From Candidatus Magasanikiibacteriota bacterium (GTDB lineage: Bacteria > Patescibacteriota > Patescibacteriia > Magasanikbacterales > GWA2-37-8), in NCBI GenBank assembly GCA_046590235.1, contig JBKJTY010000035.1, positions 14,722 through 78,721 of the forward strand: a DNA stretch of 64,000 nucleotides, given 5' to 3'. A model generated the notes under the pieces. It saw nothing but the letters and a program-made list of their open reading frames with translations, ran no database searches and had not been told where the DNA came from. A program made the position numbers and the translations under genes. Shown in pieces: positions 39,117 to 64,000 of this stretch. Position 1 is the first letter of the stretch, and each line of letters starts with the position of its first letter.

Positions 39117-39166
39117 TCAATTAGCCTAACTAAGGTAACGTTTTCACAACGTAATAAAGTGACTAA

Positions 39167-39199
39167 ACACCCCCGATTATATCGGGGGTGTTTTTGTTT
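39167..39199 (+). terminator. rho-independent terminator after the S-layer-like gene
   Basis: ACACCCCCGAT-tat-ATCGGGGGTGTttttgtttt. Confidence 0.6.
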
Positions 39200-39248
39200 T
39201 ATGATGATTGACTTTTGAAGGTCTTTCCTCTAAACTATAGGAGTAATT

Positions 39249-41323: not shown

Positions 41324-42046
41324 ATGGTAAGGCCTACCTATTCAGTTGTCATACCAGTGTACAATGAAGAAAAGAGAATTCCGATTAACATCGATGCGAT
41401 TTTCTCTTTTTTTGCTGATGTAGGCAGTTCGGTAGAAATTATTTTTGTAAATGACGGGTCAAAAGACGCTACAGCAAGTGTATTGTCAGAATACCAGAAA
41501 AAATACTTTTTCACGGTAATCAACTATTCAATTAACCGTGGAAAAGGTTACGCTATCCGGGAAGGTGTAAAAAATGCAACAGGGGATTGGGTCGTATTTT
41601 TTGATATCGATCTTGCCACTCCGCTGCAAGAATTTATAAAGCTTATACAATTAAAAACAGATACCGACAATATCATCATTGGCAGTAGAAGAGTAGAGGG
41701 GGCACACATCAAAAAAAGTGAATCAAAGTTGCGGACATTTTTAGGGCAAGGATTTACTAAAATTTCGAACATACTTGTTCCAAATATTGCCGACTTTACT
41801 TGTGGATTTAAATGCTTCTCTCGACAAGCAGCGTTAACAATCTTTAGTCGAGCTCGAATCGATCGGTGGGGGTTCGATACGGAATTATTGTATATAGCTT
41901 ATCTCCATAAAATAGCTATCAAACAAATTCCTGTAGCTTGGTCGCACGATAATAATTCAAAAGTAAGAGTAATTAACGCTATCTTTAGCTCAATTAAAGA
42001 GTTGACGCAGATGAAGATAAACCAATTAAAGGGTTTGTATAAATAA
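41324..42046 (+). CDS. GT2 polyprenol-phosphate sugar synthase (DPM1/GtrB-like)
   Basis: YSVVIPVYNEEKRI, FVNDGSKDAT, FFDIDLATP (DxD). Confidence 0.65.
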   Translation: MVRPTYSVVIPVYNEEKRIPINIDAIFSFFADVGSSVEIIFVNDGSKDATASVLSEYQKKYFFTVINYSINRGKGYAIREGVKNATGDWVVFFDIDLATPLQEFIKLIQLKTDTDNIIIGSRRVEGAHIKKSESKLRTFLGQGFTKISNILVPNIADFTCGFKCFSRQAALTIFSRARIDRWGFDTELLYIAYLHKIAIKQIPVAWSHDNNSKVRVINAIFSSIKELTQMKINQLKGLYK

Positions 42047-42047
42047 T

Positions 42048-42776
42048 ATGGAATTACACGAATACGCAAAAATGGATGCCATAGAAAAGGATCACTGGTG
42101 GTTTGTTGCCAAACGAAAGTTTTTAAGCGTGCTTGTTAGCAATTATGCGGGGGGCGATAAGAAAATGCTCGATATCGGTTGTGGCAGCGGGGCAGTGCTC
42201 GATTTTTTTAAAGCGAAAGGGTATCAAGCGGAGGGTGTCGATATGAGCGAAGCAGCTTTAGAATATTGTGATAAAAAAGGTTTGTCTGTAAAGCAGGGAA
42301 GAGCTGAAGAGTTACTGTATAGTGATAATTCTTTTGATATTATTATAGCTTCTGATGTCTTAGAGCATATTGATGATACGACGAGTGTGCTTAAGGAAAT
42401 TAAAAGAATTTTAAAACCAGGAGGTATATTTATCGTGACTGTGCCGGCTCACCAGTTCTTGTTTTCACAGCACGACATTGCCCTTCATCACGTCCGCCGT
42501 TATAGCAAAAAACTATTAGCACAAAGTTTACAAACGTATTTTTCGGTTGAATGGATCGGGTGGTTGCATGCAGCAATACTTCCGCTTGCCGTGATTGCTC
42601 GTTTGACACGCCGGTTTATTCCGAGCAAAAAAGATTCGGATGTCGGTGAATCAAGTAGGTTTGTTAATGCTATTATGAAAAAAATATATGCATTAGAATT
42701 TTTTTGGTTTAAACATTTGCATTTACCATGTGGATTGTCATTGGGTGCGGTAGTCAAAAAGGCTAAAAAAATTTAG
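42048..42776 (+). CDS. class I SAM-dependent methyltransferase
   Basis: Motif I LDIGCGSGAVL; post-I acidic residue. Confidence 0.6.
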   Translation: MELHEYAKMDAIEKDHWWFVAKRKFLSVLVSNYAGGDKKMLDIGCGSGAVLDFFKAKGYQAEGVDMSEAALEYCDKKGLSVKQGRAEELLYSDNSFDIIIASDVLEHIDDTTSVLKEIKRILKPGGIFIVTVPAHQFLFSQHDIALHHVRRYSKKLLAQSLQTYFSVEWIGWLHAAILPLAVIARLTRRFIPSKKDSDVGESSRFVNAIMKKIYALEFFWFKHLHLPCGLSLGAVVKKAKKI

Positions 42777-42783
42777 GCTGCAT

Positions 42784-44304
42784 ATGTATTTTATCAAAAA
42801 GAACGCAATTATTTTAAGCGGAGTTAGTTGGTTGCTTGTGGCTTTTTTTTCAGTAATTCGGTATGCCGCTATTTTTAACTATAAGTGTTACTTTCTAACT
42901 AATTCATTTTTGTGCCGTACGGAGATTACAAGTAGTGAAAAAGTAATGCTTTTTTTACTTATTACAACTTTCATAGTAGGTGCGATTATTGGGGGGTATG
43001 GAATATGGAAGAGGTATACTGCTGGAGAAAAAGTCTTGCCGTATGAAGGTAAAAAAGCGTACGCTCTTGTGGCCAGCTTTGTGCTGCTAGCGTCGCTGAC
43101 TATTCCGTTTGGTTCAGGGGATTTTTCATATTACTTTAATACTGGGAAAGCTTTTTATCAAAATCAAAACCCATTTGTTGATGAGCGGAACATCGAGCAA
43201 CCCTTTGTAGGTCATGGTAAAGTGTCATCCCTGACCGGATTTACGTATGGGCCGTTAGCCGGGCTGGTCTTTGAAAGGTTTTACGCGTTTAGCCACGATA
43301 GTCAAATTTATTTCATAACTCTTTGGAGACTGTTTATTATCCTCATTACTCTAGCTTGTTGCGGTACAATTGTTAAAATTATCCGCTTGCTTGGTTCAAA
43401 AGCTGAATACGCTAATTGCGCACTAGTATTACTTTTGCAACCGCTCTTTTTATTTGAAGTCATAGTTAATTGTCACTTTGACTTACTGTGGTTATTATTT
43501 GTATTACTGGCGCTATGGGCTGCTATCTTAAAGCGCTGGTGGCTCGTTATTCCGCTGCTTAGTATTGGGATATGGCTCAAATTTATACCGTTACTTTTGA
43601 TCCCATTCTTTGCGTTGTGGTGGTGGCAAGAACTCACAATGGTTAATTGGAAAAAAAGAGTAACAGAAATCGCTCTTAGTAGTTTAGTTGCTGCAATTAT
43701 AACTGTAGTAGCTTGGTGGCCGCTATGGGAAGGTTTTCGTGTGTTTGACTCCTTTATGCTTCAGACAAAATGGGCGGCAAACAGCATCTTCGCAGCTCTC
43801 TACTATTCATTAAAACCAAGCTTTGTTTGGTTATTACAGGATAAGGCCCACTGGTTTTTGACCAGACTCTTGCAAGGCTCGCTTATTATGTTTGGAACAT
43901 ACTTACTACTACCATATATAAAAAAAGTCTTCGCGGTAATTCGGAAAAAAGAACATTTAGCGCCATATGAATATGTGCAAATGATGTTCATTTCTCTTGT
44001 AGTGTATTCCTCACTGATTCAAAAGTCATTTTGGCCCTGGTACATTATTTGGTTGTTACCGTTTGGGGTCATAGTCTATGAAAAAACAAAAAACGTTTTG
44101 TTGGGGCAGCTATTAACATGGTTGAGTCTGGCACCATTAAGTTTCTATCCCATTTGGCAACTTAATTGGGCAATCTTTAAGACAGACGCTGCTGCAACTA
44201 CTTGGTTTTGGTGGGTCCTTTTCATACTAATTTGGGTTTACCCACTTTCAAGATTGATTAAAATGAGAAAAAGTAATTTTGAACAACCAATCGACTCTAT
44301 TTAA
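42784..44304 (+). CDS. polytopic membrane protein, putative GT-C fold glycosyltransferase
   Basis: 506 aa with about 12 TM segments; positioned downstream of the DPM1-like synthase. Confidence 0.35.
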   Translation: MYFIKKNAIILSGVSWLLVAFFSVIRYAAIFNYKCYFLTNSFLCRTEITSSEKVMLFLLITTFIVGAIIGGYGIWKRYTAGEKVLPYEGKKAYALVASFVLLASLTIPFGSGDFSYYFNTGKAFYQNQNPFVDERNIEQPFVGHGKVSSLTGFTYGPLAGLVFERFYAFSHDSQIYFITLWRLFIILITLACCGTIVKIIRLLGSKAEYANCALVLLLQPLFLFEVIVNCHFDLLWLLFVLLALWAAILKRWWLVIPLLSIGIWLKFIPLLLIPFFALWWWQELTMVNWKKRVTEIALSSLVAAIITVVAWWPLWEGFRVFDSFMLQTKWAANSIFAALYYSLKPSFVWLLQDKAHWFLTRLLQGSLIMFGTYLLLPYIKKVFAVIRKKEHLAPYEYVQMMFISLVVYSSLIQKSFWPWYIIWLLPFGVIVYEKTKNVLLGQLLTWLSLAPLSFYPIWQLNWAIFKTDAAATTWFWWVLFILIWVYPLSRLIKMRKSNFEQPIDSI

Positions 44305-44313
44305 TAGTATGTT

Positions 44314-45348
44314 ATGAATCAAAATACACCTAAAAAAGCACTTATCACTGGTATTACTGGGCAAGACGGCTCCTATCTTGCTGAGTTTTTATTAGAAAAG
44401 GGGTATGAAGTACACGGGATTATTCGTCGCTCAAGTAGTTTTAATACTGGACGCATTGACCATCTTTTTAAGGATCGACATGAAAAGAATGTTCGCCTCC
44501 ATCTTCATTATGGAGATTTAACTGATGGTACTAACTTAGAACGCATTCTTGCGAACGTGAAACCTGATGAAATTTATAACCTTGGTGCGCAGAGTCATGT
44601 AAAGGTTAGTTTTGAGATGCCAATCTATACAGCTGAAGCTGATGGCCTGGGAACAATACGCTTACTCGATGCAATTAAAGAATCTAAGTTGCCAATAAAA
44701 TTTTACCAGGCTGGTTCATCTGAAATGTTTGGTAAAGTTCTGGAAGTTCCACAGCGTGAAACTACGCCGTTTTATCCACGTAGCCCGTATGGGTGTGCCA
44801 AGGTGTTTTCTCATCATATTGCTGTAAATTATAGAGAAGCGTACAATATGTTTGTCTGTAACGGCATATTGTTTAACCATGAATCACCTCGTCGAGGTCA
44901 AACATTTGTTACTAAAAAGGTCACTAAGGGTTTAGCAAACATCAAGCTCGGCAAACAAGACGTGGTGTATGTTGGTAATCTAAATGCTAAACGCGACTGG
45001 GGTTTTGCCAAAGATTATGTTGAAGTGATGTGGCTTATGCTGCAGCAAGACAAGCCGGATGATTACGTTGTTGCAACAGGAGAAACACATAGCGTGCGGG
45101 AAATGATTGAAGTTGCTGGCAGTTATCTTGGTTTTACAATTACTTGGAAAGGTGAAGGTTTAGATGAAGTTGGTATTGATGCAAAAACCGGTAAGACAAT
45201 TATTAAAATTGATCCAGAATATTTCCGTCCGTCCGAAGTCGATCTGTTAATTGGTGATGCTACTAAAGCTAAGCAAAAATTAGGCTGGGAGCCAAAAGTT
45301 GGCTTTAAAGAGTTGATCAAAATTATGTGCGAAGCTGACCTCGTCTAA
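44314..45348 (+). CDS. gmd: GDP-mannose 4,6-dehydratase
   Basis: [43 protein letters not shown]. Confidence 0.85.
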
Positions 45349-45365
45349 GAGAACTAATTACTTAT

Positions 45366-46535
45366 ATGATAAAACTTATCAAATCATCGTTTTATAACGA
45401 AAAAAAAACTAAACGTGCTTTAATAAGCTTTATAAAAAAAGCCAAGATTTTTAGCATGAACGATGAATGTGCCCGTTATGAGATTGAATTTGCTAAGAAA
45501 CAGCAACGTAAACATGCGGTATTTGTCAGTAGTGGCAGTATGGCAAATTTGGTTGTATTACAAGCTTTGTTAAATCGTGGTGATCTAAAGGTGGGGGATA
45601 ATGTAGGCGTCTCTGCTCTAACATGGGCCACTAATATCATGCCAATCATACAATTGGGCTTGAAGCCGGTTATAATGGATTGTAGTATAGAAAACCTTAA
45701 TGTCACCGCAGAAACGGTTATTGAAACATTAAAAAAATATAAACTTAAAGCTTTTTTTATCACGCATGTCCTAGGATTCTGTGCTGATATTGCTAAGATT
45801 AAAAAAATCTGTGATCAGGAAAAAATTATTCTTCTCGAAGATACGTGTGAGTCGCTTGGGTCAAAAGCAGAAGGAAAACTACTGGGGAACTTTGGTTTAG
45901 CCAGTACTTTTTCCAGCTTTGTCGGCCACCACTTTTCAACTATTGAAGGTGGAATGATCTGCACTGACGATTCAGAATTGCATGAGTATTTAGTAATGGC
46001 ACGTGCGCATGGTTGGGATAGGAATCTTACTCCAAAACAGCAGGCAGCTTGGAGAAAAAAATACAACATAGACGAGTTCTATTCTAAATACACCTTTTAT
46101 GATCTAGCTTATAACGCCCGTCCAACTGAAATCCAAGGTTTCATAGGTAAAACAACTATTGGCTATTGGAATACAATCGTTAAAAAACGTGAAGGACATT
46201 TTAAAAAACTACATAAAGCAACACTGGAAAACCCAGACATACTTCCGTTGAAGGTGGGTCATATGGATGTTGTGTCTAATTTTGCTATGCCGGTTGTTTT
46301 CAAAAGCAAAGAGCTTTGGAAGTTGTATCGTACCCGTTTTGAAAAAGCTAAAGTGGAGATCAGACCTATTATCGCTGGTAATATGTCAAAACAACCCTTT
46401 TTCACCAAGCGTGTAGCGAAAGGACAATCTTGCCCGGGGGCTGCGTTTGCTCACGAGAACGGCTTCTACTTTGGTAATAATCCAGAGTTAACCAAGAAAG
46501 AAGTGCAACAGCTCTGTACATTGCTTAAAAAATAA
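45366..46535 (+). CDS. DegT/DnrJ/EryC1-family PLP enzyme with His-His replacing the Schiff-base Lys (ColD-like GDP-4-keto-6-deoxymannose 3-dehydratase)
   Basis: FSSFVGHHFSTIEGG at the position where aminotransferases carry SxxxK. Confidence 0.55.
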   Translation: MIKLIKSSFYNEKKTKRALISFIKKAKIFSMNDECARYEIEFAKKQQRKHAVFVSSGSMANLVVLQALLNRGDLKVGDNVGVSALTWATNIMPIIQLGLKPVIMDCSIENLNVTAETVIETLKKYKLKAFFITHVLGFCADIAKIKKICDQEKIILLEDTCESLGSKAEGKLLGNFGLASTFSSFVGHHFSTIEGGMICTDDSELHEYLVMARAHGWDRNLTPKQQAAWRKKYNIDEFYSKYTFYDLAYNARPTEIQGFIGKTTIGYWNTIVKKREGHFKKLHKATLENPDILPLKVGHMDVVSNFAMPVVFKSKELWKLYRTRFEKAKVEIRPIIAGNMSKQPFFTKRVAKGQSCPGAAFAHENGFYFGNNPELTKKEVQQLCTLLKK

Positions 46536-46537
46536 TT

Positions 46538-47491
46538 ATGGAAAAACAAGCAAAAATTTACGTCGCTGGTCATAAGGGGTTGGTTGGTTCAGCAATTAAA
46601 CGTGCGTTGGAACGCGAGGGTTATACCTCGATAATTGTGAGAACGCATCAAGAATTAGATCTATTGGATCAGCATGCCGTTGAAGAATTTTTTAGCCACG
46701 AACAGCCGGTGTATGTTTTTTTAGCGGCAGCAAAAGTTGGCGGAATAGTCGCTAACATGGCTGCGCCAGCTTCGTTTATCTATGAAAATGTTCAGATTCA
46801 GAATAGCATCATACACGCTTCCTATAAGCATGGTGTTAAAAAACTATTATTCTTAGGTACTTCATGTATCTATCCGCGCGTATGTCCGCAACCAATGAAA
46901 GAAGAGTATCTATTAACAGGTCCTCTTGAGCCGACTAACGAAGCATACGCATTAGCCAAAATTACAGGCATTAAAATGTGCCAGTATTATGACGTGCAGT
47001 ACCAGACAGACTTTGTTGCCGTCATGCCACCTAATATCTACGGCTACAATGATACCTTCGATTTACAGCGCTCTCATGTCATTCCAGCGTTGATCCGTCG
47101 TTTCCATGAAGCCAAGGTCGCAAATAGCCCAACAGTGACCCTGTGGGGAACGGGTACTGCCCGCCGAGAATTCTTATTTGCCGATGATGTGGCAGAAGCC
47201 TGTTTGTTTTTTATGGATAACTTTAAGCCGTCTGAGGAGCAGGTTAAAAAAGGTGAGATATTCATGAATGTAGCGGCTGGAACGGACCAAACCATCGCCG
47301 AGCTTGCCAAAGTGGTCGCGTCAGCGGTAGGGTATACGGGCACGATTGCCTGGGATACTACCAAGCCTGATGGTATGCCTCAAAAGCTGCTTGATACCAC
47401 TAAAATGACAACTCTGGGTTGGCGGCAAAAAACGAGCTTAGAAAAGGGTGTCGCCCTGACATATCAATGGTATTTAGAAAATCAGCCTTAA
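46538..47491 (+). CDS. fcl: GDP-L-fucose synthase-like epimerase/reductase (Fcl/ColC-like)
   Basis: KIYVAGHKGLVGSAIKR, an SDR Rossmann fold, 317 aa. Confidence 0.75.
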   Translation: MEKQAKIYVAGHKGLVGSAIKRALEREGYTSIIVRTHQELDLLDQHAVEEFFSHEQPVYVFLAAAKVGGIVANMAAPASFIYENVQIQNSIIHASYKHGVKKLLFLGTSCIYPRVCPQPMKEEYLLTGPLEPTNEAYALAKITGIKMCQYYDVQYQTDFVAVMPPNIYGYNDTFDLQRSHVIPALIRRFHEAKVANSPTVTLWGTGTARREFLFADDVAEACLFFMDNFKPSEEQVKKGEIFMNVAAGTDQTIAELAKVVASAVGYTGTIAWDTTKPDGMPQKLLDTTKMTTLGWRQKTSLEKGVALTYQWYLENQP

Positions 47492-47498
47492 GACTACT

Positions 47499-48314
47499 AT
47501 GGAAACCATAATTCGACCAAGAAAAAAAATTACGCTACGGGATTTTACTGAGTTAGTTCAGTATCGTGAATTATTGTATTTTTTCACCTGGCGTGATGTT
47601 AAAGTCAGGTATAAACAAACCATGCTTGGTGTAATGTGGGCTATTTTTCAACCCGTCATCACCATGGTAGTGTTTACCATCTTCTTTGGTAAATTAGCAA
47701 AAATTCCTTCAGATAATATCCCTTATCCAATTTTTGTGTATGTCGGCTTGCTTATTTGGCAATTTTTCTCCACATCACTCAATGAAACAAGTGATTGTCT
47801 GGTACAAAATAAAGCCATTATTACCAAAGTCTACTTTCCACGCTTATTGTTGCCATTTTCTTCAGTCATTACAAAGTTTGTAGATTTTTTCATCGCTTCG
47901 TTAGTCTTAATCGTATTAATGGCTTACTATCATTACTTACCTAATATTTTAGGATTATTTATCTTGCCACTCCTATTGTTTATCTCATTTTTAGCAGCAT
48001 CCGGCGCAGGTTTACTCTTGGCTTCAATCAATGTAAAATACCGCGATGTCAGATATATTTTGCCTTTCTTTATTCAGCTATTACTCTTCATGACTCCTGT
48101 CATTTACCCAGCGAGTATAGCGGGTAAATATTCGTGGATATTGGCGCTTAACCCTATGACTGGTGTAATTAAGGCGGCACATGCGGCTATTTTGGGCAAC
48201 GCACCTATAAATTGGGTGTTGCTTGGTATTTCAGGCATAATTTCAGCTATCCTGTTTGTGGTAGGAATACTCTACTTTAAAAAGACCGAACGTTACTTTG
48301 CAGATATCGTATAA
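47499..48314 (+). CDS. wzm: ABC-2 type polysaccharide export permease (Wzm/TagG-like)
   Basis: ELLYFFTWRDVKVRYKQTMLGVMWAIFQP; 6 TM segments. Confidence 0.75.
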   Translation: METIIRPRKKITLRDFTELVQYRELLYFFTWRDVKVRYKQTMLGVMWAIFQPVITMVVFTIFFGKLAKIPSDNIPYPIFVYVGLLIWQFFSTSLNETSDCLVQNKAIITKVYFPRLLLPFSSVITKFVDFFIASLVLIVLMAYYHYLPNILGLFILPLLLFISFLAASGAGLLLASINVKYRDVRYILPFFIQLLLFMTPVIYPASIAGKYSWILALNPMTGVIKAAHAAILGNAPINWVLLGISGIISAILFVVGILYFKKTERYFADIV

Positions 48315-48318
48315 ACCT

Positions 48319-49611
48319 ATGGAACCAATTATTAGTGTCAAAAGTGTCAGTAAGCGGTACGATATTACCCATGCTAATGGGAAGTATGTTACCTTGCGCG
48401 ATGTAATGACTAACATACTCAAAAGTCCGTTTAGTTTTCTTAAAAGCAAGGCAAAAAAAGCCTTTCATGGTGAGAATAAAGAAATTTTTTGGGCATTAAA
48501 GGATGTAAATTTTGATATTAAACGTGGTGAAGTCGTTGGTATTATTGGCCGTAATGGTGCTGGTAAATCAACCTTACTTAAAATTCTTTCGCAAATTACA
48601 CCGCCAACCGGTGGTGAAATTACGTTGCGAGGTCGGGTTGGTTCATTGCTTGAAGTCGGAACTGGATTTCACCCTGAATTATCAGGTCGAGAAAACATTT
48701 TGTTAAACGGGGCGATTTTGGGCATGAAGAAAAAAGAAATAATTGCTAAGTTTGATGAAATAGTTGCATTTGCGGGCATTGAAAAATTTTTAGATACTCC
48801 AGTTAAATATTATTCATCTGGCATGTATGTTCGGCTGGCTTTCTCTGTTGCCGCACACATGGAGCCGGATATTTTAATTATTGACGAAGTGCTAGCAGTG
48901 GGAGACGTTGAATTTCAAAAGAAATGTCTCGGAAAAATGAACGAAGTTTCAAAACAAGATGGGCGCACTGTCTTGTTCGTTAGTCATAACATGAATGCTA
49001 TCGAGGATTTATGTTCTCGGGTTTTATACTTCGATAAAGGGGTTCTTATTAAAGATAGTACTAATGTACGCGAGGTTGTAAGTGAGTATATTCGTGGTCA
49101 AGAAGACGGTAATATTGTCACCGAATGGGTTAATAATGGTAAAGAGTATCGTAATCCATATTTCATTCCAGAACGTATTGCTATCGTTGATGAACGCGGC
49201 GATAAAATGGTCATGCCAAAACGGAACGACGCTGAATGCTGGATTCAAATCGAAGGAACAGTTACAAGTCTTAACAAATCTCTGACAATAGGTTACGCAA
49301 TTTTTAGTGAAGAGGGGAATTTGCTCTATTGGTCATTTCATACCGATGCTGAAGAAAATAAGTGGCCCCAATTAAAAATGGGAAAAAATGTGTTGCGAAG
49401 TAAGTTTCCAACTCGGTTATTGAACGAAGGTCTTTATCGTATCGAATTCATAAGCAGCCTACATTTTATCCAGTGGCTAACCGAGCCTGGTGTAAACGCG
49501 CCGGCAGTGTATCTGACTATACAGGGTGGCTTAAGTAATTCACCATATTGGATGATCAAGCGAGCGGGTTTGTTAGCTCCGGTTAACGAATGGTCATCAT
49601 TGAATCAATAA
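48319..49611 (+). CDS. wzt: ABC transporter ATP-binding protein Wzt/TagH-like with a C-terminal glycan-binding domain
   Basis: Walker A GRNGAGKST; the ABC signature region LSGGQ is present as YSSGM; about 180 aa beyond the NBD. The ORF track starts at a TTG at 48298; the ATG at 48319 is preferred. Confidence 0.7.
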   Translation: MEPIISVKSVSKRYDITHANGKYVTLRDVMTNILKSPFSFLKSKAKKAFHGENKEIFWALKDVNFDIKRGEVVGIIGRNGAGKSTLLKILSQITPPTGGEITLRGRVGSLLEVGTGFHPELSGRENILLNGAILGMKKKEIIAKFDEIVAFAGIEKFLDTPVKYYSSGMYVRLAFSVAAHMEPDILIIDEVLAVGDVEFQKKCLGKMNEVSKQDGRTVLFVSHNMNAIEDLCSRVLYFDKGVLIKDSTNVREVVSEYIRGQEDGNIVTEWVNNGKEYRNPYFIPERIAIVDERGDKMVMPKRNDAECWIQIEGTVTSLNKSLTIGYAIFSEEGNLLYWSFHTDAEENKWPQLKMGKNVLRSKFPTRLLNEGLYRIEFISSLHFIQWLTEPGVNAPAVYLTIQGGLSNSPYWMIKRAGLLAPVNEWSSLNQ

Positions 49612-49625
49612 CTATAAAGAAGGAT

Positions 49626-50507
49626 ATGGTTATAATGCAGTTACTCGGTGGTTTAGGAAATCAGATGTTTCAGTATGCGGCAGGAAAAGCACTGGCAACC
49701 CATCATAAAACAGAATTTAAAATTGATACGAGCGGATTTAAAGAGTACGCCTTGCATGATTATGTACTGGATCATTTTATGATAACAGCGGGGGAAGTTA
49801 GTGAGAGTGAGTTACCCTCTGTTAAAGAACGTGCACTGCCCACATCCCGAATATGGCGAAAGTTATATCCGTATGTGCAAGCTTTACGGCCATACCATTC
49901 AAGACGCATTTTTGACGAACCATATTATCACTTTAATAAGCGTTTTTTAAAGCTACCGCCAAATGTTTATATCCGTGGTTATTTTCAAAGTGAACGTTAT
50001 TTTAAAGATATTGAAGATATTATCCGCAAAGAATTTGTAGTAAAACAAGAATATGGCCAGCTGGATCAGTTTTTGGCTGAAAAGCTAAAAACGCATGATG
50101 TAATTTCAGTTCACTTTAGACGCGGTGATTATGTTACCAATAAAGGTATAAACAAATTGTATGGTACGCCGTCATTTGAGTACTATGAAAAATCCATCCA
50201 GCAAATTGCCGCACGCTGCAAAAATCCGTATCTATTTATTTTCTCAAACGACAGCGCGTGGGTTAAAGAAAACTTTACCACACAAGTTCCAAAAACATTT
50301 ATTAGTGATTTCTCAATGAGTAATTTTCAAGAGCTCACTTTAATGTCAAAGTGTCACCACAACGTCATTGCTAATAGTAGTTTTAGTTGGTGGGGTGCGT
50401 GGCTTAATCAAAATCCGTCAAAAATAGTTCACGCGCCATCTCGATGGTTTGTAACTAAAAGGTGGAATACGAAAGATGTTATTCCAAAAAATTGGACGCA
50501 AGTATGA
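49626..50507 (+). CDS. GT11 alpha-1,2-fucosyl(colitosyl)transferase-like glycosyltransferase
   Basis: GT11 motif I LLGGLGNQMFQYAAGKALA. Alternative starts are at 49590 and 49635. Confidence 0.65.
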   Translation: MVIMQLLGGLGNQMFQYAAGKALATHHKTEFKIDTSGFKEYALHDYVLDHFMITAGEVSESELPSVKERALPTSRIWRKLYPYVQALRPYHSRRIFDEPYYHFNKRFLKLPPNVYIRGYFQSERYFKDIEDIIRKEFVVKQEYGQLDQFLAEKLKTHDVISVHFRRGDYVTNKGINKLYGTPSFEYYEKSIQQIAARCKNPYLFIFSNDSAWVKENFTTQVPKTFISDFSMSNFQELTLMSKCHHNVIANSSFSWWGAWLNQNPSKIVHAPSRWFVTKRWNTKDVIPKNWTQV

Positions 50508-51520: not shown

Positions 51521-51532
51521 TCGTAGAATAAT

Positions 51533-52309: not shown

Positions 52310-52319
52310 CTTAAAGTTT

Positions 52320-53294: not shown

Positions 53295-53296
53295 CT

Positions 53297-54025
53297 ATGA
53301 AAGCACTTATTTTAGCTGCTGGTCTAGGCACGCGTTTACGTCCTCTGACTGATACAATTCCTAAGCCCCTGGTTAAAATAGGTGGGCGCCCGTTGCTCGC
53401 TTACCATTTTGATTCTTTGCGGAAACATGGAGTTAATGAAGTTTTGATTAATACTCATTATCTATCAGAGCAAATCAACCATTTTGTTAAAGAGTACTGC
53501 GCTGAACACAGTGATTTCCAAGTAAGTCTTACATTTGAACCTGAACTCATCGGTAGTGCTGGCACATTACGTGCAAATGAAGGATTTTTTAGTAATTGCG
53601 AGGATTTCTTTGTTGTTTATAGCGATAATTTAACCAACATTAACTACAGCCAATTATTGTTAGAGCATAGGTTAAAGAAAGGTATTGCCACAATTGCAAG
53701 CTACTTTGAACCAAATCCAAGTTCTAAGGGAATTATTATTTTTGATAAGAATAATCGAATTGAGCAATTTATTGAAAAACCTCGACCAGAACAAATTGTT
53801 AGTAATATTGCAAACGGTGGTATTTATGTGTATAATAAAGCGATTTTATCATACGTACGGGGCCTAAAGAAGGATCCTGTAGACATAGGTAAAGATCTTT
53901 TTCCGGCTTTGGTGGCTGCTGGAGAAAATATGTACATATATCCAATGAAAGAATTCTTACTTGATATTGGAACTATGGAAGGTTACGATAAAGCAAATAA
54001 CATAATAAATACATTGGAATTTTAA
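53297..54025 (+). CDS. sugar-1-phosphate nucleotidyltransferase (HddC/ManC-like guanylyltransferase candidate)
   Basis: KALILAAGLGTRLRPLTDTIPKPLV; 242 aa, short form. Confidence 0.6.
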   Translation: MKALILAAGLGTRLRPLTDTIPKPLVKIGGRPLLAYHFDSLRKHGVNEVLINTHYLSEQINHFVKEYCAEHSDFQVSLTFEPELIGSAGTLRANEGFFSNCEDFFVVYSDNLTNINYSQLLLEHRLKKGIATIASYFEPNPSSKGIIIFDKNNRIEQFIEKPRPEQIVSNIANGGIYVYNKAILSYVRGLKKDPVDIGKDLFPALVAAGENMYIYPMKEFLLDIGTMEGYDKANNIINTLEF

Positions 54026-54027
54026 AT

Positions 54028-54792
54028 ATGGAAAATAGTACAAATATTTTTGGCGGTGAACGATTAGATTCAAAAAGTGGTTTATCAAAAAATAACCTCA
54101 CGGAGCATTTAGCGCGCTATGGGCAAGTGCCGGGAAATACAGAAGCTATTATTTTAGATATTGGCTGTGGTAGCGGACACGGCAGCTCACTTTTGGCAAA
54201 AAAGTTTAAAAAAGTTTATGGTGTAGATGTTGCGGAGGACGCAATTGCTTACGCAAAAAAGAATTGGGCTACCTTGAATGCTGAGTTTATGGTAGGTTCT
54301 GGCACAGCTATTCCCTTTGCCGATAAAACATTTGATGCGGTAGCTGCTTTTGAAGTTTTTGAGCATATTGAAAAATGGGGATTATTCTTACAAGAAATAA
54401 AACGCGTTTTAAAACCGGGCGGCAAGCTCTACATGTCAACCCCAAATAAAGATATTTATTCGCCGGGCACAAAAAAGCCGATCAATCCACACCACTTTTT
54501 TGAAATGACTATTCCTGAGTTCAAGAATGCATTATCAAACTATTTTGTAATTGAGAAGTTTTGCGGCCAACGCACACCGATTTATAACGACCATTTTGTG
54601 TGGAAGATAGCTAACCCGCTCTTTAAGCTTTTTAAGCCAATTATTGGGTATAAAGCTATTAATACCTGTAAATTAAAAATTATCAATTGGATTAAACCAG
54701 ATCTTGAATTGAGTGATATTGTATTTTCAACTGATGAGGCCTTTTTGAAAAAATCTCGATTTATGCTCGCGCATTGCGTCAACTCATTGTAA
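54028..54792 (+). CDS. class I SAM-dependent methyltransferase
   Basis: ILDIGCGSGHGS. Confidence 0.6.
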   Translation: MENSTNIFGGERLDSKSGLSKNNLTEHLARYGQVPGNTEAIILDIGCGSGHGSSLLAKKFKKVYGVDVAEDAIAYAKKNWATLNAEFMVGSGTAIPFADKTFDAVAAFEVFEHIEKWGLFLQEIKRVLKPGGKLYMSTPNKDIYSPGTKKPINPHHFFEMTIPEFKNALSNYFVIEKFCGQRTPIYNDHFVWKIANPLFKLFKPIIGYKAINTCKLKIINWIKPDLELSDIVFSTDEAFLKKSRFMLAHCVNSL

Positions 54793-54803
54793 AAGCATTT
54801 ATT

Positions 54804-56126: not shown

Positions 56127-56181
56127 GCTTATGTATTGAACCAAAGTTATTTACATATATGATCTTGATAACAACAAAAAA

Positions 56182-57504: not shown

Positions 57505-57525
57505 AAATAATATTGTATTCTAGCT

Positions 57526-58542
57526 ATGATTATTGTACGCGCGCCGTTAAGAATCAGCTTTATTGGGGGAGGCACTGACCTGCCTGATTTTTATTCTAGA
57601 TATCCAGGTAGAGTCATCTCAACCACAATAGATAAATTCGTCTATATTACAATCAATCCAATGTATCGTGATGGTCGTTTTATCGTAAAATATCAAACGG
57701 TAGAAACGGTGGAAAAGCCAGAAGAATTAAAACACGACCGTGTTCGTGCGGCATTGCTTGATCTTAACGTCAAAAAAGGTTTGGAATTAAGTTCTTTTGC
57801 GGATATTCCTTCTAAAACAGGTCTTGGATCATCTTCTAGTTTTTCAGTCGCTCTTATTAAAGGTCTTAATGCGTTAGCTGGTAAAACAATGAGTCGCGGT
57901 GAAGCCGCTGAAGCAGCGTGTCGTCTAGAAATTGACCTACTACGAGAGCCGATTGGCAAACAAGACCAATATGCAGCTGCATTTGGCGGTTTTAATATCT
58001 TTCAATTCAATTCTGATCATACGGTAACCGTTGAACCTGTGCTGCTTGATTTTAAAAAGCGTGCGACACTCGAGGATCATGTGTTGCTTTTCTTTACAGG
58101 TATTACACGTCAGGCTTCAAGTGTCTTAGTAGACCAACGCTCAAAAATTGATAAAAATTTTGAAACCTACAAGCAAATGTCCGATTCAGTTTACGATTTT
58201 CGTGACAAATTAGTTGAAGGAGATGTGGCTGGAATGGCAGCAATGTTACACGAAGGATGGTTGCGTAAAAAGAGCTTGAGTGACAAAGTGTCCAACGGGC
58301 CAATAGACAATCTTTATGAAGAAGGTATTCGAGCTGGGGCGCTCGGCGGTAAGGTTTTGGGCGCGGGCGGCGGCGGTTGTTTATTGTTTTTGGCTCCCCC
58401 AGAAAAGCATGCGGCAATCCTGCAAGCGCTTACAGAAAAAGCTAAACAAGAGGGTCTGGGAGACTCCCAAGAAATAAAAGTTAAATGTTCACAATCAGGT
58501 ACTGATATCCTGTTTAATACTAGCTGGCACTCATACACCTAA
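57526..58542 (+). CDS. hddA: GHMP sugar kinase, D-glycero-D-manno-heptose 7-phosphate kinase-like (HddA)
   Basis: IIVRAPLRISFIGGGTDLPDFY; GHMP motif GLGSSSSFSVAL. Confidence 0.65.
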   Translation: MIIVRAPLRISFIGGGTDLPDFYSRYPGRVISTTIDKFVYITINPMYRDGRFIVKYQTVETVEKPEELKHDRVRAALLDLNVKKGLELSSFADIPSKTGLGSSSSFSVALIKGLNALAGKTMSRGEAAEAACRLEIDLLREPIGKQDQYAAAFGGFNIFQFNSDHTVTVEPVLLDFKKRATLEDHVLLFFTGITRQASSVLVDQRSKIDKNFETYKQMSDSVYDFRDKLVEGDVAGMAAMLHEGWLRKKSLSDKVSNGPIDNLYEEGIRAGALGGKVLGAGGGGCLLFLAPPEKHAAILQALTEKAKQEGLGDSQEIKVKCSQSGTDILFNTSWHSYT

Positions 58543-58546
58543 TACT

Positions 58547-59143
58547 ATGAAAACATACATTAATAACTATCTTCAAGAAAATATTGATGCGATGAATGCA
58601 GTCTCACGTCTTGAAATTTCTAAAGCGATAGCGCTTTTACAGTCTACCTACGAACGAGATGGTCGTATTTATATTTTTGGAAATGGCGGATCACTGGCGC
58701 TCGCTACACATTGGGTAAGTGATTTTAATAAAACAGTCTTCAGTCACAATCTTGAATTGCACACTCGACGATTCCAAGCAATTCGCTTGCCGACCACTGA
58801 AGAAGAAATGTCAGCATGGGCTAACGACGTAGGCTTTGATATGGTTTTTGCAGGCCCATTACAGAACTATCTCCAGGACAGTGATTGTGTTATTGCTATT
58901 AGCAGTTCCGGCAACTCCCCAAATATTATTAAAGCTGTTGAACTCGCTAAAAGCCGTCATGTACCAGTGATTGGTCTGTCAGGTTTCGACGGCGGTAAAT
59001 TAGCAGCCTTAGCCGATGCCGCGCTAGTTGTTCCGACTGAAAAAGGAAAATATGGACCGGTTGAGGGCGTCCATGGAGTATTGTTGCACCTCATCACCAT
59101 GTATTTTCAAGCTTATTTTGACCATCTAGTGGCTAAAAAATAA
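58547..59143 (+). CDS. gmhA: sedoheptulose-7-phosphate isomerase (SIS domain)
   Basis: RIYIFGNGGSLALATHWVSDF...IAISSSGNSPNII. Confidence 0.7.
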   Translation: MKTYINNYLQENIDAMNAVSRLEISKAIALLQSTYERDGRIYIFGNGGSLALATHWVSDFNKTVFSHNLELHTRRFQAIRLPTTEEEMSAWANDVGFDMVFAGPLQNYLQDSDCVIAISSSGNSPNIIKAVELAKSRHVPVIGLSGFDGGKLAALADAALVVPTEKGKYGPVEGVHGVLLHLITMYFQAYFDHLVAKK

Positions 59144-59146
59144 TAC

Positions 59147-59653
59147 ATGAGCAAAGGAATGAAAATAGCCTTTTTTGACCGCGATGGCGTAATAAACAAA
59201 AAGGCAGAAGAACATCATTATATTACTCGAGTAGAAGATTTTGTATTTAACAAGTCAATTTTTCAGCTTTTCCACAAATTAAAAAAGTTAGGTTTTGAGT
59301 TCATTGTTATTACAAATCAGCGCGGTGTTGCGCGCGGGCTCTATACCGAACAAGATTTAAAAAACATCCACGATCACATGTGTCAGAAATTGACAGAGCA
59401 GGGGATTACTTTGCTCGATATTTTTTATTGTCCACACGATATCGGACAGTGCGATTGTCGAAAGCCTCAGCCTGGATTATTAGAGCAAGCATGTAAAAAA
59501 TATACTATCGACCTTTCAAAGTCGGCGTTAATAAGCGATAGTAAAGGCGAGATTGAAATGGGTAAGCTTTTTGGTATTAAAAAATCAATATACATTGAAT
59601 CTGATACTATAACCGATGATACGGCAAAAGAATTAGAACAATCAACGTTATAG
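59147..59653 (+). CDS. gmhB: D,D-heptose 1,7-bisphosphate phosphatase (HAD)
   Basis: IAFFDRDGVIN and the CxHxxxxxCxC-like zinc motif (CPHDIGQCDCRKP). Confidence 0.7.
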   Translation: MSKGMKIAFFDRDGVINKKAEEHHYITRVEDFVFNKSIFQLFHKLKKLGFEFIVITNQRGVARGLYTEQDLKNIHDHMCQKLTEQGITLLDIFYCPHDIGQCDCRKPQPGLLEQACKKYTIDLSKSALISDSKGEIEMGKLFGIKKSIYIESDTITDDTAKELEQSTL

Positions 59654-59683
59654 CCCTCTGGATGAGCCTGGAAGGTTTAAACT

Positions 59684-61305: not shown

Positions 61306-61307
61306 TA

Positions 61308-62018
61308 TTGCATATGGATTCAAAAAACGAAATGGCTGTTTCGATCGTAATCCCAACGTATAATGAAGCAAAAAATCTTCCGCTGTTGCTTGAAGAAATA
61401 TTCATGTATTTAAAACAGGCGTCTATTGAAGCTGAAGTTGTTATTGTTGACGATAATTCACCAGATGGGACAGGGGATATTGCTGAAGAGCTTAAAAGAA
61501 CCTATCCATTGCAAGTAATCCATCGGACTGGTAAACTGGGGCTGGGGAGTGCGGTGCGCGCAGGTTTTAAAGTGGCACGAAACCCGATAATCGGCGTTAT
61601 GGACGCTGATTTAAGTCATGATCCAGCAATCTTAAAGGAGCTCATACATTCATTAAATGATAATGATATAGTAATTGGTAGTCGATTTAATGAAGGAAGT
61701 ACGGTTGAAAACTGGACAATTATTCGGCAGATAATTTCTAAAAGCGGGGTATGGATTGCCTGTAAATTAACTAAGGTTAAGGATCCTCTGAGTGGTTACT
61801 TTTTTTTAAAAAAAGAAAATTTAGAAAAGTTGGAGCTACAAACAACCGGCTACAAAATTCTTTTGGAAATACTTGTAAAAATGATTGATGTTAAAGCGAA
61901 AGAAGTACCTTACACATTCCGAATGCGAAAATACAGTACGTCAAAATTAAACTTTAAAGAATTTATTTATTTTGGCAAACAGTTAATTGAGTATTCTTGG
62001 TATAAATTATTTCATTAA
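61308..62018 (+). CDS. GT2 polyprenol-phosphate mannose/glucose synthase (DPM1-like)
   Basis: VSIVIPTYNEAKNLPLLLEEI, VVIVDDNSPDGTGDIAEEL, GVMDADLSHDP. Confidence 0.75.
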   Translation: MHMDSKNEMAVSIVIPTYNEAKNLPLLLEEIFMYLKQASIEAEVVIVDDNSPDGTGDIAEELKRTYPLQVIHRTGKLGLGSAVRAGFKVARNPIIGVMDADLSHDPAILKELIHSLNDNDIVIGSRFNEGSTVENWTIIRQIISKSGVWIACKLTKVKDPLSGYFFLKKENLEKLELQTTGYKILLEILVKMIDVKAKEVPYTFRMRKYSTSKLNFKEFIYFGKQLIEYSWYKLFH

Positions 62019-62027
62019 AACTTTTTT

Positions 62028-62654
62028 ATGGCAAAAAATAGTTGGGATAGTTATTGGAAAGAAAATAAAAATAAAGAAACATTTTTTAATGGACTTGTTG
62101 CAGTATTGCGTAAGTATTACTTTGCAAAAGCCTTTGCTAAATTTCTTAACCAACATCATCCAGTTAAAGGGAAGAAAGTTTGTGAAATCGGCGTAGGTTC
62201 TGGACTTACCTTGGCACATATTAAAAACCTTGGTGCTAGCAGTTGTGTCGGCGTTGATAATTCGAATGAAGCAATCGAATTGGCAAAGCAAGAAAATAAA
62301 ACGTGCGAATTTGTCTTTGGTGACGCTTTTAAACTTCCGTTTGCGGACAAAGAATTTGATATCGTGTATTCACTTGGTCTAATCGAACATTTTAACAGAG
62401 ATCAGCAGCGCCAAATTTTGGCTGAGCAAAAGCGAATTGCTAAGGAATGTGTATTTATCGAAGTTCCATACGACGTATTCTACTTTAGATGGTTATTTGC
62501 ATTTAATCGTTCACGCGGCCGTACGTTAACCTTCAGTGATGAAGAATTATTTACCAAAGCTACTTTCCGTGATATTGGATTAAAAGGTGAAAGTAAGTTA
62601 ATGCCAACTACCTTCTTCCTGACCATCGGACATTTTGAACCTAGTAATACTTAG
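62028..62654 (+). CDS. class I SAM-dependent methyltransferase
   Basis: VCEIGVGSGLTLAH; VFGDAFKLPFADKEFDIV. Confidence 0.55.
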   Translation: MAKNSWDSYWKENKNKETFFNGLVAVLRKYYFAKAFAKFLNQHHPVKGKKVCEIGVGSGLTLAHIKNLGASSCVGVDNSNEAIELAKQENKTCEFVFGDAFKLPFADKEFDIVYSLGLIEHFNRDQQRQILAEQKRIAKECVFIEVPYDVFYFRWLFAFNRSRGRTLTFSDEELFTKATFRDIGLKGESKLMPTTFFLTIGHFEPSNT

Positions 62655-62656
62655 GT

Positions 62657-64000
62657 ATGTGGGAAAAAATTCAAAAGATCTATAACCACAAATGGTGTAA
62701 TTATTACCTTGTATTAGTGGGTTCTCTTTTGATATCTTTTTTTCGAATTGACCACCAAAGTCTTTGGTTGGACGAATCAATTAGTATTGAATGGGCGGCA
62801 AAAAAGCCATTGATTTGGATTTGGGAAAATGTTCCGAAAACCGATCTTCATCCACCAGTTTATTACAGTATTCTGCATTTCTGGCAAAGCGTTTTTGGTG
62901 ATTCAGTCTTTTCTATCCGCGCCCTTTCCGCATTATTCTTTGTAGGCAGTAGTTTGCTTATATATTACTTTGCGAAATTAATTTTTTCATCAGATAAAAA
63001 AGCATTGGTGGCAAGTTTGTTGTTCATAACAAATCCATTCGCCGTCTTGTACGCACAAGAAGTGCGCTCATACTCATTTCTGATTTTTTTAATTCTCATA
63101 AATGCTATTTTCTATTATAAAATAGTTTTCTTGAAAGAAGAAAATAAGCGTTTATATCTGTGGTACTTCCTAACGGCCCTCATTTTCATCTATACCAATA
63201 TTATTAGTTTGTTTGTATTGCTAGCGCACGCAATCATTGTGCTTTCAAAGAAAGATTTGAATTTATTTAAGAAATTTTTATTTGTATATACTTTATTATT
63301 TTTGGCTTACATTCCCGTGCTGAAAATTGTACAAAGCGCTAACAAGTTTGATTACTCATATTACTACACAGAAAAGTTTAACATTGTAATGCAAGGTGTC
63401 GTTGCTATAGCCGGCTTTATTGGCGCAAGAGTAAACGTCTTAAATGGTAAAAATCATATTTACGGCTTGTTAGCAGCGAGCTTGGCGCTTTACGGGTTGA
63501 TTTTTCTTTTTGGTTTAAAAAATATAAAAAAATTAAATACCTACTTACTTTATTTTTTTGGTCTTTCATTAGCGATTACTTTAGCTGTAACATATAGTAA
63601 ATTTCCAGTACCCGATCCTAAATACTTTTATGTAGCTTTCCCTTCGTTCATCCTCCTAGTCGCTAATATACTAGCTGTTATCGATAAAAAAATTATTAGG
63701 AATACAATTTTAGCTGCAGTATTACTGGTTAATAGTGTTTTTCTTTACAATTACTTTTTTGTAAAAGCGTACGAGAGAGAAAATTGGAAGTCAGCAGTAA
63801 AGCAGGTTGAACAAAACTATGCCACAGAAAAGAATAAAACAGCTGTAATGATAGCCCCGTTTTCTGAGCCGTATACAGCATGGTCATATTATAGTCAGGA
63901 TAGTATTCCGGGTATTGGCGCTTTTAAATATGGAAATAGCACCACATCCATAGAACGAGCTTTTAGCGAATTTAACAAACCAGCAAAAGACATTATTTAT
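62657..64000 (+). CDS. 3'-truncated GT-C fold membrane glycosyltransferase (PMT/ArnT GT39/GT83-like). The ORF is open to the window end.
   Basis: The ATG at 62657 has no stop through 64000 (absent from the ORF track for that reason). Motif SLWLDESI in the first periplasmic loop (compare the DE/DD motif of PMT/ArnT); more than 9 TM segments. Confidence 0.5.
   Translation, partial: MWEKIQKIYNHKWCNYYLVLVGSLLISFFRIDHQSLWLDESISIEWAAKKPLIWIWENVPKTDLHPPVYYSILHFWQSVFGDSVFSIRALSALFFVGSSLLIYYFAKLIFSSDKKALVASLLFITNPFAVLYAQEVRSYSFLIFLILINAIFYYKIVFLKEENKRLYLWYFLTALIFIYTNIISLFVLLAHAIIVLSKKDLNLFKKFLFVYTLLFLAYIPVLKIVQSANKFDYSYYYTEKFNIVMQGVVAIAGFIGARVNVLNGKNHIYGLLAASLALYGLIFLFGLKNIKKLNTYLLYFFGLSLAITLAVTYSKFPVPDPKYFYVAFPSFILLVANILAVIDKKIIRNTILAAVLLVNSVFLYNYFFVKAYERENWKSAVKQVEQNYATEKNKTAVMIAPFSEPYTAWSYYSQDSIPGIGAFKYGNSTTSIERAFSEFNKPAKDIIY

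Follow-up and report, generated by a model that had tools for sequence, protein, structure and literature searches.

Two analogous glycosyltransferase, methyltransferase and membrane transferase cassettes in a surface-glycan locus of Candidatus Magasanikiibacteriota, with a possible role in extracytoplasmic glycosylation

We analyzed a 64,000-nucleotide stretch of DNA from a Candidatus Magasanikiibacteriota bacterium (assembly GCA_046590235.1, contig JBKJTY010000035.1, positions 14,722 to 78,721 of the forward strand), hereafter called the window, whose glycan locus (~40000-64000) carries one order of three genes twice. In both places a family 2 glycosyltransferase (GT2) gene is followed by a gene for a class I S-adenosylmethionine (SAM) methyltransferase (MTase) and by a gene for a polytopic glycosyltransferase of the C fold class (GT-C). 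This order, reported in an initial annotation made from the sequence, was recovered at 41324-44304 and at 61308-64000, with every open reading frame (ORF) on the plus strand at the coordinates given there and with gaps of 1-10 nt between the ORFs of each cassette. When the 25 genes of the locus were shuffled, the ordered triple occurred twice in 4e-4 of 1,000,000 permutations. With moderate confidence we interpret the two groups as independent cassettes, each of which would transfer a sugar from a lipid-phosphate carrier to an acceptor outside the cell, the MTase tailoring the donor. The best reading of the sequences is a Gtr-like extracytoplasmic glycosylation system with an embedded donor-tailoring MTase and without GtrA, present twice in analogous form. 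Two distinct extracytoplasmic steps dependent on lipid-phosphate sugars, as the initial annotation had proposed, are likewise the best reading of the GT2 and GT-C family assignments. Functional statements below rest on sequence, predicted structure and synteny.

Protein composition of the two cassettes

The members of the cassettes and a third MTase of the same locus are as follows; TM stands for transmembrane.

41324-42046, plus strand: GT2 of cassette 1 (GT2_1); PF00535, 2.1e-28; no TM anchor
42048-42776, plus strand: class I SAM MTase of cassette 1 (MT_1); PF08241, 4.2e-24; N-terminal HWWF motif
42784-44304, plus strand: GT-C of cassette 1 (GTC_1); MptA_B family, PF26314; PimE/PIG-M/ALG3-like fold; 10 hydrophobic segments
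54028-54792, plus strand: third class I SAM MTase (MT_3); PF08241, 8.8e-27; within a GT4/heptose block
61308-62018, plus strand: GT2 of cassette 2 (GT2_2); PF00535, 2.4e-29; DPM1-type catalytic domain; no TM anchor
62028-62654, plus strand: class I SAM MTase of cassette 2 (MT_2); PF13649, 1.6e-17; small, highly conserved
62657-64000, plus strand: GT-C of cassette 2 (GTC_2); PMT_2/ArnT-like, PF13231; 10 hydrophobic segments; cut by the window end, ~47 amino acids (aa) missing

GT2_2 aligns over its full length with the catalytic domain of the dolichyl-phosphate mannose synthase (DPMS) of Pyrococcus furiosus (PfDPMS; 5mlz, 1.9e-51). The acceptor-phosphate, DXD and A-loop residues that we mapped are those defined in the paper on the PfDPMS structure, where the enzyme is also compared with human DPM1 (PMC5526996). 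In PfDPMS numbering, GT2_2 keeps Glu12, the DXD motif (DADLSH versus DADLQH), His94, Arg117, Arg131, Ser135, Lys178, Arg202 and Lys208, and the only change relative to this residue set is Gln93 to Ser. In its own numbering R126, R140 and S144 correspond to Arg117, Arg131 and Ser135, and a Y-K pair stands for F177-K178. The signature shared by DPM1, Ppm1 and DPMS (DXD, acceptor-phosphate residues and A-loop Arg/Lys) is thus present in GT2_2, which is predicted to be a DPM1-type catalytic domain of a polyprenyl-phosphate mannose synthase; the hexose would very probably be mannose taken from GDP-mannose.

The assignment of GT2_1 is looser. Its seven best matches among PDB sequences are all DPMS, ArnC or GtrB (6.6e-15 to 1.3e-12), and its best NCBIfam matches are PgfS and ArnC. 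GT2_1 has DIDLAT where DPMS has DADLQH and keeps Arg117 and Arg131 (R122 and R137); its alignment to DPMS stops short of the A-loop. We regard it as a probable polyprenyl-phosphate glycosyltransferase. Both GT2s are closest to polyprenyl- or dolichyl-phosphate glycosyltransferases and both membrane proteins belong to GT-C, which agrees with the lipid-phosphate-sugar synthase type named in the initial annotation. As in Gtr-type systems, each cassette has a predicted GT-A-fold transferase that would charge polyprenyl phosphate, with the weaker match in GT2_1, and a GT-C transferase encoded alongside.

All three MTases match the Pfam families Methyltransf_11/25/23, and MT_3 is indeed a class I enzyme, as the initial annotation had it. 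MT_1 and MT_2 each consist of a single domain, are 208-242 aa long and have no signal peptide and no clear TM segment. MT_1 has 815 homologues at E<=1e-10, and most of the 120 listed match near their full length. In the 20 homologues that were aligned, the N-terminus has the motif E..HWWF..R, the C-terminal region is conserved, and 28 columns, GxGxG among them, are invariant. Neither of the SAM motifs, GxGxG and the acidic residue that follows strand 2, varies in the alignments of the MT_1 and MT_2 families. The AlphaFold2 model of MT_1 (pLDDT 93.2) has a class I MTase fold, and the structures nearest to it are generic small-molecule, lipid and sugar MTases that give no clue to the substrate. 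These profile and structure matches rule out an rRNA or DNA methyltransferase, the former having been named in the initial annotation as a finding that would overturn its interpretation. MT_2 homologues show 49-69% identity. A profile search of 1.84 billion representative sequences returned only 3 at E<=1e-30, so that the MT_2 family is essentially one 50%-identity cluster; where a source is named for a member, the label reads Patescibacteria.

For GTC_1, local Pfam and NCBIfam profile searches gave no match, and PF26314 (MptA_B_family) was found in the precomputed annotations for exactly this protein. Besides this profile match, GTC_1 has a predicted GT-C fold that matches that of PimE, and its first outward loop has an acidic residue. 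Among GTC_1 homologues, four proteins of 751-760 aa (P0125-P0128) carry an additional C-terminal soluble domain of ~250 aa with no Pfam annotation. GTC_2 matches PMT_2 with 38.5 bits against a gathering cut-off of 26.1, and its best NCBIfam match, a weak one, is a mycobacterial mannosyltransferase. The LWLDESI motif that the initial annotation had pointed out in the ORF starting at 62657 occupies residues 36-42, just past the first hydrophobic stretch. LWLDES aligns with LWNDES, LWLDEA, ETDEA and W-DES of related PMT_2 proteins, and the motif appears to be the acidic first-loop motif expected of GT-C enzymes. Searches of PDB sequences with both GT-Cs gave no match.

The two cassettes resemble each other far more in order than in sequence. 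BLASTP identity is 34% over 124 residues between GT2_1 and GT2_2 and 31% over 122 residues between MT_1 and MT_2, and no significant similarity was detected between GTC_1 and GTC_2. The GT-C classes differ, GTC_1 being PimE/PIG-M-like (MptA_B family) and GTC_2 PMT/ArnT-like, and so do the MTase subfamilies. No direct DNA repeat of at least 25 nt is present in 39000-64000. Because protein identity is low or undetectable and there is no DNA repeat, what recurs is the design and not the sequence. Where the initial annotation spoke of a duplication, the cassettes are analogous and not paralogous copies. A recent duplication of cassette 1 or an assembly artefact, which that annotation had itself named as a possible refutation, has the identical gene order in its favor and nothing else; the pairwise protein comparisons, the repeat search, the different GT-C families and the separate orthologues of each cassette elsewhere exclude it, and we give it a negligible probability. 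MT_3 shows 32% identity to MT_1 over 135 aa and 36% to MT_2 over 94 aa; its distance from MT_1 is similar to that between MT_1 and MT_2.

Conservation of the cassettes and natural fusions

For cassette 2, a metagenome scan yielded 25 loci (L-numbers below denote loci), 22 of them with sequence upstream of the MT_2 orthologue. A GT2_2 orthologue lies immediately upstream of MT_2 in 21 of the 22 (E ~1e-27 to 1e-92, the weaker values coming from genes cut by contig ends), and in the remaining locus one extra MTase stands between the two. GT2_2 has orthologues of 58-63% identity in this upstream position. Wherever a locus extends far enough, a protein with 8-12 hydrophobic segments (fewer at contig ends) is encoded directly downstream or within ~4.5 kb, although it is not always the same protein. 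The GTC_2 orthologue follows directly in L101, L111, L112 and L093 (in the last as a protein of 495 aa with 54% identity), while a different protein with 10-12 TM segments follows in L098 and in L108 (= L089). In five loci (L097, L099, L105, L114 and L115) a second, fused GT2-MTase of 471-477 aa and a 240-aa protein precede the polytopic protein. The order is reversed in L092, where the 240-aa protein (Methyltransf_21) comes before a fusion of 488 aa. In all six of these loci there then follows a gene for a polytopic protein, which has 8-11 hydrophobic segments or is truncated by the contig end. The second GT2 and MTase fusions, all downstream of the GT2_2/MT_2 pair, are located as follows.

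L092, 9353-10819
L097, 5722-7137
L099, 3290-4705
L105, 6395-7828
L114, 5628-7052

The MT_2 family is itself found fused to a GT2. The third-best match among the MT_2 representatives (P0210, 502 aa) is a natural fusion whose residues 31-248 form a DPM1-like GT2 (29% identity to GT2_2, with the signature MDADFSHDP and GSRY...YRRLLIS) and whose residues 290-484 form an MT_2-like domain (36%, 8e-36). GT2-methyltransferase fusions exist for both MTase families, the case for MT_1 being described below. Gtr systems show this same combination of a conserved donor-making pair with a variable GT-C (PMC11127046).

Cassette 1 belongs to a larger conserved unit. A four-gene block composed of a Wzy_C/TPR protein, a GT2, an MTase and an MptA_B GT-C is kept in six loci on five contigs (L082, L083, L084, L086, L119 and L120), among which L086 comes from a Magasanikbacteria metagenome-assembled genome. 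MT_1 identity among the relatives that keep the block is 46-56%, and in L082-L084 the GT2 shows 61-65% and the GT-C 34-42% identity to its counterpart in cassette 1. Wzy_C orthologues directly upstream of cassette 1 show 42-52% identity in L082, L083 and L086; L084 has a partial one (38% over 272 aa), and the equivalents in L119 and L120 were assigned by Pfam match and position only. L121 has the same GT2-MTase pair with unannotated flanking genes. The genes after the block differ, with a Wzx flippase and other sugar genes in the relatives and a run from Gmd to Wzm/Wzt in the window. Because the block is kept while the following genes differ, it is a conserved core beside a variable glycan region. 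The two cassettes also co-occur outside the window: L084 and L093 share one 38.8-kb contig, on which cassette 1 opens a Wzx-type locus and cassette 2 lies towards the far end, with inner genes that differ from those of the window.

Beyond these close relatives, the neighborhoods of full-length MT_1 family members (28-38% identity) were taken from a scan of species-representative genomes. Distant members stand directly beside GtrB-like GT2s of 300-440 aa with ~2 predicted TM segments in L003, L014, L016, L020 and L025, and beside a 269-aa GT2 without TM segments in L023; in L004, L007 and L010 a GT2 lies within 1-2 genes. Polytopic neighbors include PMT_2 (L010, L019 and L023), YfhO (L016) and a protein with a weak PIG-V-like match (L019). 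Distant MT_1 members beside GtrB-like GT2s and PMT_2/YfhO GT-Cs span at least 5 phyla. In L019 (Acidimicrobiales) a single protein of 497 aa joins an N-terminal GT2 (33% to GT2_1) to a C-terminal full-length MT_1-like domain (30%), and a PMT_2 GT-C adjoins it.

The enzyme between synthase and GT-C can also be exchanged. In L087 (5761-10548) and L088 (1329-5945), a GT2 of GtrB-like type with two TM segments, a soluble protein of ~180 aa and a DegT aminotransferase precede a GTC_1 homologue. This arrangement corresponds to Arn-like donor tailoring and shows that the enzyme placed between the synthase and the GT-C can be swapped.

Genomic setting of the cassettes

Every substantial ORF from 35412 to the window end is on the plus strand, and the genes past that of a large surface protein are separated by gaps of mostly 1-25 nt (at most ~55), with some overlaps. 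GC content is 0.34-0.40 in the glycan locus as against 0.41-0.50 in the upstream housekeeping part, which encodes FtsA, pyruvate kinase, Elp3 and a 2-oxoacid:ferredoxin oxidoreductase. Within the glycan locus the GC skew on the coding strand is persistently positive. Source names carried by homologues are indicative of Patescibacteria, including Magasanikbacteria. The Elp3-type radical-SAM/GNAT tRNA-modification enzyme (13247-14902, minus strand) is full-length, with 534.9 bits for TIGR01211 against a cut-off of 350. The main features around the cassettes are the following.

35412..39116, plus strand: secreted surface (S-layer-like) protein, 1234 aa; N-terminal hydrophobic signal-like segment; rich in Ala/Thr/Ser/Val/Gly
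39165..39193, plus strand: terminator-like hairpin directly 3' of the surface-protein gene; 13-bp stem with 7 GC pairs, followed by a T-run
39208-39236: promoter-like site before the Wzy_C/TPR gene; match to consensus only
39249..41321, plus strand: Wzy_C (O-antigen-ligase-type) membrane protein with a C-terminal TPR region, 690 aa; PF04932, 2.2e-22; TPR_19
47499..49611, plus strand: Wzm/Wzt ABC exporter; ABC2_membrane and ABC_tran matches; Wzm/Wzt- and TagH-like NCBIfam matches

The locus runs from the surface-protein gene through the hairpin and the Wzy_C/TPR gene to cassette 1 and then to Gmd, an RfbH/ColD-like DegT-family protein and an Fcl-like reductase. These are followed by Wzm, Wzt, a GT11, two GT2s, GalE, a nucleotidyltransferase and MT_3, and then by two GT4s, HddA-like, GmhA and GmhB proteins, a GT2, a hexapeptide acetyltransferase and cassette 2. 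Within the window's share of the locus, no gene for an initiating phosphoglycosyltransferase was seen.

The 1234-aa surface protein has no Pfam match and no recognised S-layer domain. Its N-terminal 530 aa show 33% identity to the counterpart in L082, and the same position is filled by proteins of 1218-1268 aa in L082, L083 and L119. It is a probable glycosylation target. The hairpin and the promoter-like site behind its gene suggest that the surface protein is highly expressed, with read-through or re-initiation into the glycosylation genes. The Wzy_C/TPR protein has 12 hydrophobic segments and is, by analogy, a candidate oligosaccharyl:protein transferase: the Wzy_C proteins WsfB, PglL and WsaA/WsaB, which have TPR repeats of their own or accompanying ones, are proposed to be oligosaccharyl:protein transferases (PMC2943079). 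Wzt (48298-49611) has a C-terminal extension of ~170 aa without a Pfam match. Such extensions of Wzt-type proteins elsewhere bind the capped terminus of a glycan.

Two sets of nucleotide-sugar genes are present between the cassettes. Gmd, the RfbH/ColD-like DegT-family protein (best match RfbH, 2.1e-55, below cut-off) and an Fcl/ColC-like reductase are encoded at 44314-47491, with the GT11 nearby (49590-50507); possible products of this set are GDP-fucose or a 3,6-dideoxyhexose, for instance colitose. A pathway of the GDP-D-glycero-D-manno-heptose type (HddC-like, HddA-like, GmhA and GmhB) is encoded at 53297-54025 and 57526-59653, interrupted by MT_3 and the two GT4 genes. Some S-layer glycans are known to contain heptose.

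Proposed route, alternatives and known systems

The route that we propose would begin at the inner face of the membrane, where the TM-less DPM1/GtrB-type GT2 would charge polyprenyl phosphate with a hexose. The adjacent cytoplasmic SAM MTase would then tailor the donor sugar before it is flipped, its substrate being most likely the lipid-linked monosaccharide, or else the nucleotide sugar. Finally, the GT-C, PimE/PIG-M-like in cassette 1 and PMT/ArnT-like in cassette 2, would pass the sugar to an extracytoplasmic acceptor. SAM is found in the cytoplasm and neither MTase has a signal peptide, so that any methylation of the sugar delivered by the GT-C would have to precede export. The likely acceptor would be the glycan of the 1234-aa surface protein or the protein itself; cassette 1 lies beside the surface-protein and Wzy_C/TPR genes, which points to the surface glycoprotein or its glycan, and the PMT-like GTC_2 could act on protein directly. 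The main glycan would be synthesized in the cytoplasm, exported by Wzm/Wzt and attached to the surface protein by the Wzy_C/TPR enzyme. More specifically, MT_1 and MT_2 may O-methylate the monosaccharide on polyprenyl phosphate, giving for example polyprenyl-phosphate-(O-methyl)mannose, and the cassettes may represent a distinct and widespread charge-methylate-flip-transfer system; we hold this narrower proposal tentatively, at somewhat less than an even chance.

Several observations weigh against this route. No small multi-TM ORF that could encode a GtrA-type flippase (~120-140 aa, 3-4 TM) exists in 39000-64000, and none was found in the related loci, where small ORFs adjoining the cassettes are free of TM segments. 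(The sole small multi-TM ORF of the window, a 3-TM protein at 6176-6556 upstream of ftsA, was considered as GtrA and rejected; it belongs to the DAGK_prokar diacylglycerol/undecaprenol kinase family, 1.4e-28.) GT2_1 has Gly at the position of Ser135, which makes its acceptor less certain, and Asp at the position equivalent to Lys178, the latter placed by eye and not from the alignment. MT_1 and MT_2 resemble generic small-molecule MTases. Hydropathy and hydrophobic-moment analysis of the MTases and GT2s gave weak hints only that the MTases associate with the membrane. In addition, the GTC_1 homologues in L087 and L088 have no MTase, which makes the MTase accessory and not essential to the GT-C.

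Two further points of this kind belong to an alternative in which MT_1 and MT_2 act on a cytoplasmic glycan linked to undecaprenyl diphosphate, capping it or O-methylating it internally in the manner of WbdD or WsaE, their position reflecting tight operon packing. The locus is ABC-transporter-dependent and the C-terminal extension of Wzt could read a cap; WsaE, which has both MTase and GT2 domains, is the cap enzyme of an S-layer glycan, and split or fused GT2 and MTase cappers exist. Loci of this type are also rich in MTases. Yet MT_2 directly follows a DPM1-like GT2 in nearly every locus where this position could be seen, the same cassettes are found in Wzx-type loci without Wzm/Wzt, and GT2_2, having the full acceptor-phosphate signature of DPMS, is not a polymerising glycosyltransferase. 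WbdD and WsaE are fused to kinase/coiled-coil domains or to polymerising glycosyltransferases and are tied to ABC export, whereas MT_1 and MT_2 have no such domain or fusion and no obligate coupling to Wzm/Wzt. A cap or another cytoplasmic O-methylation, which the extended Wzt might read, is more plausible for MT_3, which is flanked by neither a DPM1-like GT2 nor a GT-C. We consider a capping role of MT_1 and MT_2 unlikely. Of the two options offered in the initial annotation, an ABC-pathway cap fits less well than methylation linked to the pathway of the lipid-linked donor, given the near-obligate GT2-MTase adjacency, the fusion of both enzymes in some genomes, and the presence of orthologous cassettes in Wzx-type loci that have no Wzm/Wzt. 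The cassettes occur independently of the type of export pathway, in Wzx as well as Wzm/Wzt loci.

It is also conceivable, if still less likely, that the GT2 adds its sugar to another acceptor (a glycan, a glycolipid or a small molecule) which the MTase then methylates, and that the GT-C draws on a housekeeping pool of polyprenyl-phosphate sugar. Neither GT2 has the TM helices found in GtrB, ArnC and archaeal DPMS, GT2_1 is weakly DPMS-like and does not keep Ser135, and there are weak matches to GpgS and MftF/MftM-type enzymes. Against this stand the end-to-end match of GT2_2 to the DPMS catalytic domain with the dolichyl-phosphate-binding residues kept, and the recurrence beside GT-C genes across phyla, which such a scheme would hardly explain. 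TM-less catalytic subunits of this type of enzyme are established, human DPM1 and mycobacterial Ppm1-D2 among them. A non-lipid acceptor is possible mainly for GT2_1. Finally, the MTase might be a structural or regulatory partner that tethers or activates the anchor-less GT2, like DPM2/3 or Ppm2. The obligate pairing, the fusions with TM-less DPM1-like GT2s and the fact that no other membrane-anchoring partner is encoded nearby are compatible with this role, but the invariant SAM-binding motifs of both families imply catalysis and the MTases themselves have no clear TM segment. We judge it quite improbable.

The donor-tailoring route has parallels in several known systems. Like the Gtr-type systems (GtrA/GtrB/GtrC, CsbB-YfhO, GacI-GacL and the pentofuranose systems; PMC11127046), the cassettes place a gene for a GT2 that would charge polyprenyl phosphate beside one for an outward-acting GT-C, and a conserved donor-making part is combined with a varying GT-C to modify a glycan from a separate Wzx or ABC pathway. 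They differ in that no GtrA-like flippase is present, the GT2s have no TM anchors, a SAM MTase is integral (near-obligate in cassette 2), and one locus has two cassettes with different GT-C classes. The actinobacterial systems in which Ppm1 supplies PimE, MptA/MptB or Pmt are similar in other respects: GT2_2 is a TM-less DPM1-type domain like Ppm1-D2 and human DPM1, GTC_1 falls in PF26314 with a PimE-like fold, and the best NCBIfam match of GTC_2 is mycobacterial. Here, in contrast, the organism belongs to Patescibacteria, there is no Lnt/Ppm2 partner, an MTase is present, and the genes form compact cassettes within a surface-glycan locus.

Tailoring of a donor by an additional enzyme, which alters the sugar on or towards the lipid carrier before extracytoplasmic transfer, is shared with ArnD, DprE1/E2, the ORF13 epimerase and AglP. 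ArnD acts on undecaprenyl-phosphate-linked Ara4FN and so tailors a lipid-linked donor. The ORF13 epimerase, which converts undP-Ribf to undP-Xylf, and DprE1/E2, which act on decaprenyl-P-ribose, also tailor a lipid-linked monosaccharide donor (PMC11127046). AglP is a SAM MTase in the dolichol-phosphate-based glycan assembly pathway of Haloferax (PMC3871713); that pathway assembles an oligosaccharide on dolichol phosphate and AglP is not part of a three-gene cassette. The chemistry would set the present cassettes apart from these systems, as methylation is proposed here. To our knowledge, the tailoring of lipid-linked donors in known systems consists of epimerisation or deformylation and not of methylation, and we know of no description of a methylated polyprenyl-phosphate monosaccharide. 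An incomplete literature search, which is weak evidence of novelty, gave no precedent for such methylation, for an MTase within a three-component system or for S-layer glycosylation in Patescibacteria.

As a whole, the locus resembles the S-layer glycosylation (slg) clusters of the Gram-positive Geobacillus and Paenibacillus, which likewise combine a surface-protein gene, a Wzy_C (with TPR) transferase, wzm/wzt, nucleotide-sugar genes, glycosyltransferases and MTases in tightly packed, partly overlapping genes of lower GC content. Of these components the window has Wzy_C with TPR, Wzm/Wzt, Gmd, an Fcl-like reductase, GalE and the heptose-pathway genes; the surface protein has a signal-like N-terminus but, as noted, no known S-layer domain. 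The slg clusters differ in having no DPM1 and GT-C cassettes.

Extracytoplasmic glycosylation from polyprenyl-phosphate sugars is a general bacterial route to surface-glycan diversity. If the proposed route is correct, the cassettes would use a previously undescribed lipid-linked donor and offer the only route to a methylated sugar added by a GT-C, and the GT2 and MTase pair predicts a mass increase of 14 Da on polyprenyl-phosphate-hexose when the MTase and SAM are present. A function would be assigned to two unannotated methyltransferase families, and the system would occur in Patescibacteria and, through the MT_1 family, in Acidobacteriota, Ignavibacteriota, Actinomycetota, Alphaproteobacteria and DPANN archaea. 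The cell surface of Patescibacteria would become better understood as well; these bacteria rely on contact with host cells, and their envelopes have hardly been characterised.

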